DNA from: Escherichia coli
GTDB taxonomy: Bacteria > Pseudomonadota > Gammaproteobacteria > Enterobacterales > Enterobacteriaceae
Assembly (NCBI RefSeq): GCF_041886205.1
Contig: NZ_CP169029.1
Reading direction: 5' to 3' (one strand)
DNA: 64,000 bases
Shown: positions 62,430 through 63,422 of the stretch, piece after piece
Layout: each line of letters opens with the position of its first letter
How positions within the stretch are numbered: the first letter of the stretch is position 1
The notes under the pieces: generated by a model
The model's database searches: none
Told to the model about the DNA's origin: nothing
The model's input: only the letters and a program-made list of their open reading frames with translations
Made by a program: the position numbers and the translations under genes

Positions 62430-63422
62430 ATAGCAGATACTTTATGTTGATAGACCGTACCTTGTCGTCGTATATCAGGGACTTACTGAAAACCGATCAA
62501 AGCAAACTTTGAGTAACACTCGCCTGCGTCCATTTTTTCTAGCTGTATTCATCAACTCCTGCAACGATATCACCTGTATGGCGTTGAAGCCCAAGATGAA
62601 GGCGTCGTGATCCACGATCGCGAATTTCAAGTATTTCGCCCCGTCCCTTGCGCTCGTGACTTTCTGTATGTATTTCATGTTTTACCCAGTTCTGGTGTTG
62701 TCCAATAATGACCATCCACCGATCCAGTCAAAAACTTCATTTTTCAAATTGATACCATAACAATCAACATCGTAATGGTCTCCATAATTAATTATTTAAC
62801 AACTAGCCAACACGTTTTGATCATCAAAATAGCACCCGTTAGCGAAAGTAGCGCAGAACAATCCATAATCTCCAGTTTGCTAATGTTTCGCAATCGCACG
62901 CTATAAAGAATATCACCGAAAAAACTAACGATTTATATCAACCACTCCAGCAGAGCGACCTGAAACTCTTAACCATTATACTTATAAAATGACCATTCCC
63001 TCGACTAGTTCTCTGGTCATTAATTATTGCATAAATAATATTCACCCAGAAACATCTATCTCAACTGCTCGTTGCTGGCCCATGTCCGGTAAATATGATG
63101 TCTGGGAATTTGAATAGGGTATCAAGCCCAAAGGTAAAACAAATAAACCAGGTGGTAATTGAGAAGATGGCCAAGTTTGCCTCTGGTAATTCAAGTGTCT
63201 GAACTCCCTTGCTTTGCTTTCATTGGATTATCTGCATCCCTGGCCACCCCAACCCGTGGAGTCGCCCAGTGGCGTATTTTTCAATACGTGCATCGCTACA
63301 TTTGGCAGAAAAATCGCCACAAGCAATACCTGACAGTGTTATTTTCAGATTGATGATTCTGTCTGTAGCTGGGCGTAACCCTGTCTATCCCTGCAGCTGA
63401 TGATTTTGACCTATCATGTTAG

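Follow-up and report, generated by a model that had tools for sequence, protein, structure and literature searches.

The interval at positions 62430–63422 of the window (the whole 64,000-nucleotide stretch of Escherichia coli DNA analysed here) is very probably what is left of an Rhs tail module known from E. coli, now without function, its immunity ORF being a pseudogene rather than an unrecognised gene. The window copy can make neither the toxin nor the immunity protein, and the module gives the strain neither a weapon nor a shield; short peptides may be expressed from the remnant ORFs. The feature is ordinary in kind. For annotation, the interval consists of pseudogenes (Rhs tip, ydcD, yncO and ISAs1) and is neither intergenic DNA nor a candidate for an immunity gene of a new kind. 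The analysis also gave two side results of greater use than the pseudogene finding, namely a lead to the function of RhsE and YdcD and the divergence of the window copy. The organism was checked with fadE, which is 100% identical to that of E. coli. The features of the region are as follows.

60114..61258, minus strand: ISAs1/H-repeat transposase pseudogene 1 (ydcC-like), adjoining yafV
61439..62523, minus strand: ISAs1/H-repeat transposase pseudogene 2 (yncI-like), 86.6% identity to K-12 yncI
62475..62678, minus strand: 67-aa ORF, a chance ORF across the spacer and the ISAs1 start
62524..62704, no strand: spacer separating ydcD from the H-repeat; with 73% identity to K-12 and 7 indels, it has diverged more than any other part
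62607..62791, plus strand: remnant of yncO, a small antisense gene (tblastn with K-12 YncO, coordinate mapping)
62705..63198, minus strand: ydcD-family immunity pseudogene (tblastn, base-level alignment to K-12)
63183..63635, minus strand: remnant of a C-terminal toxin domain of RhsE type (Pfam DUF6973), matched by the K-12 RhsE tip in three frames (tblastn)
63423..63695, minus strand: 90-aa ORF, taken for the Rhs tip in the preliminary description; a frameshift product
63636..64000, minus strand: 3' end of the Rhs core, running off the window end, with single-base insertions at about 63828, 63670 and 63654

The same parts occur in the same order and orientation in the rhsE tail of strain K-12 (NC_000913.3, 1,527,890–1,532,952), which reads rhsE' pseudogene–ydcD–yncO (antisense)–yncI'–ydcC. 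Colinearity of the two copies extends from the core/tip junction through the second H-repeat, and the families of the toxin tip (DUF6973) and of the immunity gene (YdcD_fam) are shared. K-12, however, has an in-frame tip and intact copies of ydcD, yncO and ydcC, whereas the window copy is without any intact gene, has 73–87% identity to the K-12 rhsE tail with 50-odd small indels, and adjoins yafV instead of yncH. The proposal that the interval represents an eroded Rhs tail is thus supported: the whole interval is a ruined, colinear copy of the K-12 rhsE tail, with the toxin-domain remnant in its upper ~240 nt and the first 94 nt of ISAs1 pseudogene 2 at its lowest end. Matches to the interval are present in 2,467 of 5,426 complete E. 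coli genomes, where the features are annotated as Rhs, ydcD and ISAs1.

In E. coli O26:H11 strain 11368 (NC_013361.1, 257,628–263,315), the same yafV-linked locus is found where the aspV type VI secretion island ends, abutting tagH, tssJ, tssK and other secretion genes. Its layout is that of the window (tagH'–Rhs'–ydcD, frameshifted–ISAs1'–ISAs1'–yafV), and the yafV/ISAs1 junction is the same in both, with 99–100% identity over 58.4–60.8 kb of the window. The window module sits at the yafV-proximal end of this island, as in O26:H11. Comparison with the same locus in another strain had been suggested as a check, and the O26:H11 copy is likewise annotated as pseudogenes: according to PGAP, its Rhs gene is without an N-terminus, its ydcD is frameshifted and both its ISAs1 copies are broken.

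The Rhs gene of the window is broken in its core as well as in its tip. The window ends at 64000 inside the core, and the N-terminal part of the gene lies beyond it, as do the secretion genes. The core portion at 63636..64000 shares 97.5% identity with the Rhs cores of 3,697 E. coli records and, inserted bases aside, ~99% with an orphan core downstream of rhsC in strain EJN001. It is of another subfamily than the K-12 rhsE core, to which it has ~80% identity (substitutions by codon position, 19:13:41), in contrast to 97.5–99% to rhsA–D-type cores. The core/tip boundary motif PxxxxDPxGL remains as DPMGL at 63636–63650. No continuous frame leads from the core through this boundary into the toxin; the frame is broken at ~63828, at 63654–63670, at 63478 and at five further sites within the toxin domain, in agreement with the earlier view that the toxin gene is disrupted, and the frame jumps in the core are visible in a three-frame translation.

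In the toxin-domain remnant, alignment to K-12 rhsE reveals 72 substitutions, evenly spread over the codon positions (27:18:27), and 6 frameshifting indels, and the original stop codon TAG is CAG in the window copy. On the PF22322 profile (DUF6973; gathering threshold, 27 bits), the K-12 RhsE tip scores 46.5 bits, whereas the window tip scores only 13.7 bits even after frame repair and so stays below the threshold. The Rhs tip had been taken to end at 63422, but the stop codon at 63423–63425 follows a +1 insertion of T at 63478, within the conserved toxin motif HNGAADAMRH, and toxin homology continues in other frames to ~63183. Past this insertion, the last 22 codons of the 90-aa ORF (IETLPLDASIDQASWMRQ...) are out of frame; this ORF has no Pfam match, and no identical protein is on record.

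No intact immunity-sized ORF was described downstream of the tip. This holds, but the gene itself is not missing: a ydcD pseudogene is present at 62705–63198, colinear downstream of the DUF6973 tip. K-12 ydcD overlaps the rhsE stop by 17 nt, and this overlap maps to 63183–63198 in the window. The recommended tblastn search, run with K-12 RhsE-CT, YdcD, YncO and ISAs1, does bring out each of them in order, but with the matches spread over several frames. In the remnant, the start codon ATG is replaced by ACA, there are 78 substitutions besides 10 insertions and 1 deletion that each shift the frame, two in-frame stops persist after frame repair, and the gene's own stop codon is lost. The frame-repaired translation, YdcD', is 68% identical to K-12 YdcD and scores 136.8 bits on the NCBIfam profile NF050020 YdcD_fam (164 positions; cutoff, 65 bits). 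The best YdcD piece in a real ORF, that of 35 aa at 62938–63045, covers profile positions 52–83 and scores 31.5 bits against the same cutoff. The ydcD remnant is homologous DNA and not a member of the YdcD family as a protein. In the interval, no intact ORF of ~160 aa was found that has a hydrophobic segment at its N-terminus and ends in W-I-G-K-W-S, and the longest ORF (67 aa) lies outside the ydcD frame.

When frame-repaired YdcD' was used as a query against 5.8 billion protein clusters, no intact allele nearer than K-12 YdcD was found; many of the 142-aa YdcD "variants" are the O26-type frameshift form with single changes. The substitutions in the ydcD remnant are evenly spread over the codon positions (30:29:19). 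Both the synonymous fraction (0.255 vs 0.239, and 0.169 vs 0.193) and the number of in-frame stops (3 vs 3.1) match neutral simulation. Given at least three frame breaks in the last 370 nt of the core and the damage to both the toxin domain and ydcD, there is no live toxin from which the cell would have to be protected.

The other parts of the module are damaged as well. The yncO remnant is divided between two frames and contains an in-frame stop, and neither ISAs1 copy retains an intact transposase ORF of ~378 aa. ISAs1 pseudogene 2 has undergone 22 insertion and 5 deletion events, and its 145-aa ORF is at most 56% identical to its best protein match. ISAs1 pseudogene 1 has 7 insertion events in all; its 3' two-thirds are 98–100% identical to other E. 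coli, whereas its 5' third has 89% identity and 6 single-base insertions, and it is here that the abnormal divergence starts.

From ~60.9 to 63.64 kb, the window copy differs by 12–23% from all other known copies, and it has no counterpart in public data. The 2,471 E. coli genomes that have a copy all match the window allele at 81.4–82.0% identity. That the ISAs1 parts might be a patchwork of known ISAs1 subfamilies was considered and rejected: among 24,782 E. coli ISAs1 places (best per record) compared with window positions 61100–61700, only one record exceeds ~88%, in the 90–95% band. A window-specific 22-mer gave 0 matches in genome and metagenome collections, and a 29-mer across the Rhs-core frameshift gave 0 matches in the metagenome collection. 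A 33-mer conserved in all alleles retrieved only K-12-type copies, on four short MAG contigs, and no outgroup allele. Exact-protein look-ups of four window ORFs (90, 145, 67 and 262 aa) likewise found none on record.

In a relative-rate test over 2,133 sites, 262 differences were private to the window and 0 were private to K-12 or O26, the K-12-type sequence sitting at the node. Between the tip and yncI, no difference from K-12 is private to O26, and the listed site patterns account for all but 4 of the 2,133 sites. The changes in the window copy are biased towards AT-to-GC (235, vs 62 GC-to-AT) and towards insertion (51 events, vs 10 deletions), but substitutions dominate, with 14% mismatches as against ~2% indel events (an indel-to-substitution ratio of ~1:6 to 1:9). 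Only 11 of the 36 single-base insertions copy the neighbouring base, and therefore the insertions are not slippage. The differences are clustered, leaving perfect runs of 42–55 nt between them. Changes affect all four bases and transversions are frequent, and for this reason mutagenesis by a diversity-generating retroelement or a deaminase was rejected. In amount and pattern the divergence is not ordinary erosion: the changes look neutral but are much too numerous and too localised for normal decay.

It is quite possible, in a judgement that we make tentatively, that the divergence, and hence much of the apparent erosion, is an error of the record. The stretch from ~60.9 kb to the window end would then be a badly resolved or corrupted consensus between repeats, and the strain would really be K-12/O26-like. 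The uniqueness of the allele in all searches, whether of genomes, proteins, k-mers or ORFs, is consistent with this, as is the occurrence of so many window-private differences (and none private to K-12 or O26) beside flanks at 58.4–60.8 kb that are 99–100% identical to O26. E. coli mutation is biased in the direction opposite to the excess of AT-to-GC changes and insertions seen here, and the insertions do not arise by slippage. Single-base insertions are also found within Rhs core and ISAs1 sequence that is otherwise ~99% identical, and the abnormal zone reaches the very end of the window.

Several observations fit a faulty record less well. The remainder of the window is clean, including a multicopy IS1 that is 99.2–99.5% identical without gaps, and errors of long-read platforms are indel-rich, unlike the predominance of substitutions here. 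The clustering of the differences and the perfect runs between them also count against it. Moreover, another deposited complete genome, CP125919.1, is independently hyper-diverged in the same segment, pointing to a cause specific to the module, technical or biological. If the record is in error, the copy in the living genome could be far less damaged; even so it need not be intact, because the same-locus copy of O26 is also annotated as pseudogenes.

In CP125919.1 (GCA_046629845.1), the tip, ydcD, spacer and yncI-like H-repeat are 67–87% identical to K-12, whereas the flanks are 97–98% identical, and the allele is unique among the 5,426 complete genomes. The segment hyper-diverged there is the same as in the window and is, by codon position, similarly free of selection; the tip–ydcD part of the window matches it at ~70%. 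The two copies differ in several respects. That of CP125919.1 lies at the rhsE locus and that of the window next to yafV; in the former the changes come as patches of equal length, indels are few, the spectrum is balanced and a 163-codon ydcD-like ORF is retained, whereas the latter shows dispersed changes with many insertions and an AT-to-GC bias. The divergence of CP125919.1 is independent of that of the window copy: the positions changed in one show no correlation with those changed in the other (r = 0.002; 49 are shared, vs 48.6 expected), and the divergence hot spots do not coincide. Unique divergence in two such records points either to a kind of assembly error that deserves flagging or to a mutational phenomenon as yet without explanation.

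Such a phenomenon might be a real, local hypermutation or patch-replacement process without base specificity, acting on the Rhs tip/immunity/H-repeat segment. At least two independent episodes would be required, in the window and in CP125919.1, altering 12–20% of ~2.5 kb and leaving adjacent DNA untouched. We consider this unlikely, even though the same segment, from the core/tip junction to the H-repeat, is affected in two singleton genomes at different chromosomal loci and with uncorrelated positions. In both, the K-12-type sequence is the apparent parent and the changes are clustered as patches between perfect blocks; furthermore, no template for the novel sequence was found elsewhere in the window (one shared 13-mer vs 3.7 expected by chance). 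However, we know of no bacterial mechanism that gives 12–20% change over 2.5 kb without base specificity. Diversity-generating retroelements change only adenines, in tracts of roughly 100 nt, whereas A, T, G and C all change here. The window and CP125919.1 also differ in the style of change, the changes destroy genes and do not vary them, and both cases are single records without replication.

There is likewise little probability that the window copy results from ordinary slow decay of a pseudogene, or is an old, divergent natural allele kept at this locus or recombined into it from an unsampled Escherichia lineage. A selection-free substitution pattern would be expected in either case, and the indel-to-substitution ratio is near that of mutation accumulation. 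The boundaries of the abnormal zone, at the core/tip junction and inside ISAs1, are plausible recombination points; the strain's lineage is poorly sampled, the best genomes matching the last 24.5 kb of the window at only 96%; and AT-rich DNA drifting to 50% GC would give some AT-to-GC excess. The relative-rate test nevertheless argues against slow decay, because at equal rates comparable change would be expected on the K-12-type branch, and K-12 and O26, which represent different loci and phylogroups, have no private differences. Bacterial pseudogenes are known for a deletion bias, unlike the insertion bias and non-slippage insertions of the window copy. The window and CP125919.1 share the same base against K-12 at 39 sites, which is about what chance coincidence predicts, and 71 sites are changed in both as against ~76 expected. 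Neither an intermediate nor a related allele was found in the 5,426 complete genomes, the protein database or the contig scans, and the adjacent unique DNA is 99–100% identical to O26.

On the minus strand, along which the Rhs gene runs, the longest ORF in 62430–63422 was confirmed by re-derivation to be that of 67 aa reported previously (62475–62678, ATG). The other minus-strand ORFs of at least 30 aa measure 58 aa (62539–62715), 50 aa (63042–63194, TTG), 37, 35, 35 and 32 aa, the plus-strand maximum is 64 aa, and the three minus-strand frames contain 17, 19 and 14 stop codons. The interval is also AT-rich as described, with a GC fraction of 0.416 vs 0.507 for the whole window and 0.543 for fadE–yafV. 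These ORF lengths agree with random expectation: in 2000 shuffles of the same composition, the longest ORF was 56.8 ± 17.3 aa, and an ORF of at least 67 aa appeared in 23%. The scarcity of ORFs is therefore meaningful only because the homologous K-12 stretch holds a 160-aa ORF. The 67-aa ORF is a chance product of window-specific mutations; its ATG arose by a window-specific A-to-G change (ATA in K-12), its frame is closed in K-12-type sequence, it matches no family in Pfam or NCBIfam, and no identical protein is on record.

It is very improbable that a functional immunity gene of an unconventional kind, short or with a non-ATG start, is hidden among these ORFs. Seven of them on the minus strand measure 32–67 aa, some with TTG or GTG starts, and the two of 35 aa are in-frame YdcD fragments. 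However, the folded domain of YdcD comprises residues 26–160 (PDB 8WJ5), whereas the largest in-frame fragment is confined to positions 52–83 and stays well below the family cutoff. The other ORFs match no family and have lengths like those of the shuffles, the longest depends on a start codon specific to the window, and the toxin to be neutralised is itself destroyed. A small or non-ATG conserved immunity gene would have contradicted the preliminary description, and no such ORF in the interval is conserved or reaches the family threshold. Promoter-like and terminator-like sites in the region are not above the level of shuffled sequence, and an Rfam scan of 59900–64000 gave no match at E <= 1.

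The suggestion of an orphan module region, that is, an array of toxin-tip and immunity modules that were displaced and now follow a main rhs gene, is scarcely credible, common though such modules are downstream of rhs (e.g., a partial core and ybfC after rhsC in EJN001), as the interval is colinear end to end with one K-12 module (tip, ydcD, yncO, H-repeat), the tip directly follows the core with its DPMGL boundary, and the module at 60114–63635 is the only one, neither a further core fragment nor a further tip being present between 60.1 and 63.6 kb.

In its intact form, the module of which the window holds the wreck would consist of an Rhs protein bearing a DUF6973 C-terminal toxin behind the DPxGL boundary, and of YdcD, which we infer from gene arrangement and homology to be the immunity protein of the RhsE tip. 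The type VI system would export the toxin, whose site of action is probably the periplasm; the product of the overlapping ydcD gene, membrane-anchored or facing the periplasm, would neutralise it in sister cells. In its site of action the toxin would resemble its Pfam relative BteO of Bacteroides fragilis, a recently characterised OmpA-binding effector that is toxic only in the periplasm and whose immunity protein carries a signal peptide (PMC12541434). The structures of the BteO–BtiO pair are available (PDB 9UU0/9UU1; PMC12541434).

[quoted passage not shown] Both proteins are type VI secretion cargo, and both are followed by a small gene whose product carries an export or anchor segment at its N-terminus. 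On the other hand, BteO is a stand-alone effector with its own transmembrane helix, whereas the RhsE toxin is an Rhs tip, and their pairwise similarity is weak (E = 0.16). A PDB search gave no sequence match between YdcD and BtiO, and a single-sequence AlphaFold2 model of YdcD residues 26–160 (pLDDT 33.5) was too poor for comparison with the BtiO fold. YdcD is labelled uncharacterized in PDB 8WJ5, and no functional study of YdcD, rhsE immunity, DUF6973, 8WJ5 or CP125919 was found in the literature. A distant YdcD-like gene located between truD and surE has no toxin in its neighbourhood. Another, of 31% identity, lies directly after a DUF6973-matching ORF on a metagenome contig of unrelated origin. 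The sharing of DUF6973 by the RhsE tip and BteO, together with the occurrence of YdcD-like genes after DUF6973 ORFs in an unrelated lineage, suggests a testable function for two unstudied genes of K-12.

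The interval at 62430-63422 (minus strand) is part of a known Rhs tail module, here in a more damaged copy, and is ordinary in kind; no candidate new gene or system is present within it. The fadE gene (55932-58454) is 100% identical to that of several E. coli genomes, which identifies the window as E. coli DNA. Beyond the gene series yafJ-gmhA-fadE-ivy-yafV, the minus strand carries, in this order, two degraded transposase genes of the ISAs1 (H-repeat) type, the interval and an Rhs gene cut off by the end of the window. Colinear alignment with the K-12 rhsE element tail and with the copy in E. 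coli O26:H11 11368 (O26) delimits the following features:

63636-64000, minus strand, end of the Rhs core
63183-63635, minus strand, RhsE-type toxin tip (Rhs C-terminal toxin domain)
62705-63198, minus strand, ydcD
62607-62791, plus strand, yncO, antisense
62524-62704, spacer
61439-62523, minus strand, yncI-like ISAs1 pseudogene (#2)
60114-61258, minus strand, ydcC-like ISAs1 pseudogene (#1)

The interval takes in the final ~240 nt of the toxin domain, all of the immunity gene, the spacer and 94 nt from the start of the H-repeat. In O26, the corresponding site, bordering the aspV type VI secretion island, shows an identical arrangement, tagH'-Rhs'-ydcD(frameshifted)-ISAs1'-ISAs1'-yafV, with all parts annotated as pseudogenes; the module is already annotated in this way at the same locus in other strains. 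Some strains, E. coli C and ATCC 43886 among them, have lost the region. The interval is matched in 2,467 of 5,426 complete E. coli genomes at only ~81% identity, and the features there are annotated as Rhs, ydcD and ISAs1.

The preliminary description had reported an AT-rich interval whose longest minus-strand ORF is 67 aa (62475-62678), and both observations hold. GC content is 0.416, compared with 0.507 for the window; minus-strand ORFs of at least 30 aa measure 67, 58, 50, 37, 35, 35 and 32 aa, and the three minus-strand frames contain 17, 19 and 14 stops. Shuffled sequences of the same composition have a longest ORF of 56.8 ± 17.3 aa, reaching at least 67 aa in 23% of cases. Because its ORF landscape equals that of shuffled sequence, the interval alone looks non-coding, without special ORF depletion. 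The homologous K-12 stretch carries a 160-aa ORF. The 67-aa ORF straddles the spacer and the ISAs1 start, owes its ATG to a window-specific change, lies in a frame closed in K-12-type copies and has no family match. The interval has no Rfam match, no excess of promoter-like or terminator-like sites and no conserved small or non-ATG immunity gene.

In tblastn searches, K-12 RhsE-CT, YdcD, YncO and ISAs1 were each matched, but the matches are scattered across two or three frames and interrupted by in-frame stops. Relative to K-12, ydcD has lost its start codon (ATG to ACA) and its stop codon, carries 78 substitutions together with 10 insertions and 1 deletion, none a multiple of three, and retains two stops after in silico frame repair. 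The frame-repaired YdcD' scores 136.8 bits on NCBIfam YdcD_fam (cutoff 65), and homology to this family is therefore secure; among the real ORF pieces, the top score is 31.5 bits. The homolog of yncO, which encodes a small protein in K-12 and lies antisense to the ydcD end, is likewise broken, with two frames and an in-frame stop. The view that this is an eroded Rhs tail with a disrupted toxin gene was thus right in substance, with the qualification that ydcD is present but wrecked.

The stop at 63423, previously taken as the end of the Rhs tip, does not mark where the toxin naturally ends: an extra T at 63478, within the conserved GGAHNGAADAMRH motif, shifts the frame, and the stop comes 22 codons on. 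The tip differs from that of K-12 by 72 substitutions and 6 frameshifting indels, and its stop codon TAG has become CAG. On Pfam DUF6973 (threshold 27), the K-12 tip scores 46.5 bits and the repaired window tip 13.7 bits, and the real 90-aa ORF of the tip gives no score. The visible Rhs core is ~99% identical to an rhsC-orphan-type core but has three single-base insertions, near 63828, 63670 and 63654. Since 63636-64000 is of the rhsA-D type (97.5-99% identical, versus ~80% to the rhsE type) and the tip is RhsE-type, this locus exemplifies the attachment, at the DPxGL boundary, of a tip to a core from another subfamily. In the window, the toxin-immunity module cannot operate.

Differences from K-12 are spread evenly over codon positions in ydcD (30:29:19) and the tip (27:18:27); between the Rhs core and its rhsE counterpart, third positions predominate, as is usual (19:13:41). 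In a neutral simulation, the empirical substitution spectrum was put on the K-12 genes without selection: observed synonymous fractions were 0.255 and 0.169, against simulated values of 0.239 and 0.193, and 3 new in-frame stops were observed against 3.1. Given the even codon positions and this match, the divergence of the tip and ydcD bears no trace of selection for protein function.

The 2.7-kb segment at 60900-63640 differs by 12-23% from all other known copies and has no equal in public data; the divergence continues more weakly to 64000. Identity to O26 is 96.5-100% per 200-nt block at 57.0-60.8 kb (99-100% from 58.4 kb), drops from 99% through 97.5% and 93% to 85% at 60.8-61.4 kb, within ISAs1 #1, and is 77-92% up to 63.64 kb; for the Rhs core, identity to the cores of other E. 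coli is 97.5-99%. The remaining E. coli copies group tightly together, at 81.4-82.0% identity to the window. No closer allele was found in the 5,426 complete genomes or among 5.8 billion protein clusters, and exact-protein look-ups and k-mer scans of genome and metagenome collections did not recover the window allele. Base changes are biased from AT to GC (235 versus 62), with per-site rates of 0.110 for A>G and 0.102 for T>C versus 0.053 for G>A and 0.034 for C>T. Insertion events outnumber deletion events (51 versus 10), inserted bases are G/C-rich, and a neighbouring base is copied in only 11 of the 36 insertions of one base. The differences cluster: adjacent pairs number 88, versus 49.8 ± 7.4 expected, and three perfect runs of 42-55 nt occur where 0.03 runs of 40 nt or longer would be expected. 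As a control, IS1 at 35185-35952 is 99.2-99.5% identical, without gaps, to the IS1 copies of E. coli C and ATCC 43886, so repeats elsewhere in the window are clean.

A representative search yielded a second singleton, at the rhsE locus of GenBank CP125919.1 (L012, 1,785,160-1,805,651). Its Rhs tip-ydcD-H-repeat segment (L012 9540-11760) is 67-87% identical to K-12, with flanks at 97-98%, and has no other copy among the 5,426 complete genomes. It is altered in equal-length patches, each 20-40 nt long and ~50% different, between perfect blocks of 50-100 nt; indels are few, and the changes are selection-free by codon position. In a relative-rate test on a four-way alignment of 2,133 sites, private differences numbered 262 in the window, 419 in CP125919.1 and 0 in both K-12 and O26; 71 sites were changed in both singletons, versus ~76 by chance, and the changed positions were uncorrelated. 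Because K-12 and O26 have no private differences and the changes of the singletons are uncorrelated, K-12-type sequence stands at the tree node, and the window and CP125919.1 each descend from it, independently and with heavy change.

The window divergence is tentatively ascribed to an error or alteration of the sequence record. It agrees with the singleton status of the allele, the reversed mutation biases, the extension of the abnormal zone to the window end and the non-slippage insertions, which are present also in otherwise identical repeat sequence; against it, the rest of the window is clean, and the error type is, to our knowledge, unlike that of known sequencing platforms. A real burst of local mutation is the other, less favoured explanation, and the divergence should be given no biological weight ahead of a raw-data check. 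Normal-rate decay or an old allele is disfavoured because comparable change would be expected on the K-12-type branch and in the window flanks, where it is not seen.

In K-12, ydcD begins 17 nt ahead of the rhsE stop, and such overlap is the usual arrangement of toxin tip and immunity gene in Rhs and CDI systems. Our literature search found no paper testing the RhsE tip or YdcD, or linking them to the Bacteroides fragilis effector BteO via DUF6973; PDB 8WJ5, comprising YdcD residues 26-160, is labelled "uncharacterized". Searched against PDB sequences, the K-12 tip matched BteO (9UU0) weakly (E = 0.16), and the aligned 90-aa BteO stretch scores 53 bits on DUF6973. As both pass DUF6973, the K-12 RhsE tip (L002 4487-4939) and BteO are members of one Pfam family. 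The toxicity of BteO is restricted to the periplasm; the effector lacks enzymatic activity, binds OmpA C-terminal domains and has its neutralising partner in the signal-peptide protein BtiO (PMC12541434). YdcD has a hydrophobic N-terminal segment. The intact module would pair a periplasm-acting DUF6973 toxin with YdcD immunity, a reading that these observations and the YdcD-like genes described below support but do not prove. The likeness to BteO suggests a testable function for an uncharacterised E. coli tip, with YdcD as its periplasm-facing immunity protein.

A full HMMER scan revealed a small family of YdcD-like proteins (27-33% identity, 150-165 aa) ending in W-I-x-K-W-S. On a metagenome contig (L015 3-803), one of the genes lies immediately downstream of an ORF that hits DUF6973. 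Another (L014 6001-6498) stands alone between truD and surE in GCA_009800925.1 and is possibly an orphan immunity gene. Four short contigs (L007-L010, 2.6-3.5 kb) in MAG bins assigned to Planococcaceae UBA3370, Sporosarcina psychrophila, Bacillota and Flavobacterium psychrophilum carry rhsE-ydcD DNA; they are probably E. coli contamination because this DNA is 98-100% identical to E. coli K-12.

The source strain is a mosaic, poorly represented among complete genomes. The last 24.5 kb of the window has a best identity of ~96% among complete genomes. The segment at 46971-53143 (yafP-yafO-yafN-dinB-lafU-lfhA-rayT-yafL, names read from the ATCC 43886 annotation, with 46971-47878 mapping partly to prfH' and upstream) reaches no more than 95-96.6% identity with ATCC 43886, unlike fadE-yafV, which is 99.7-100% identical to that strain.
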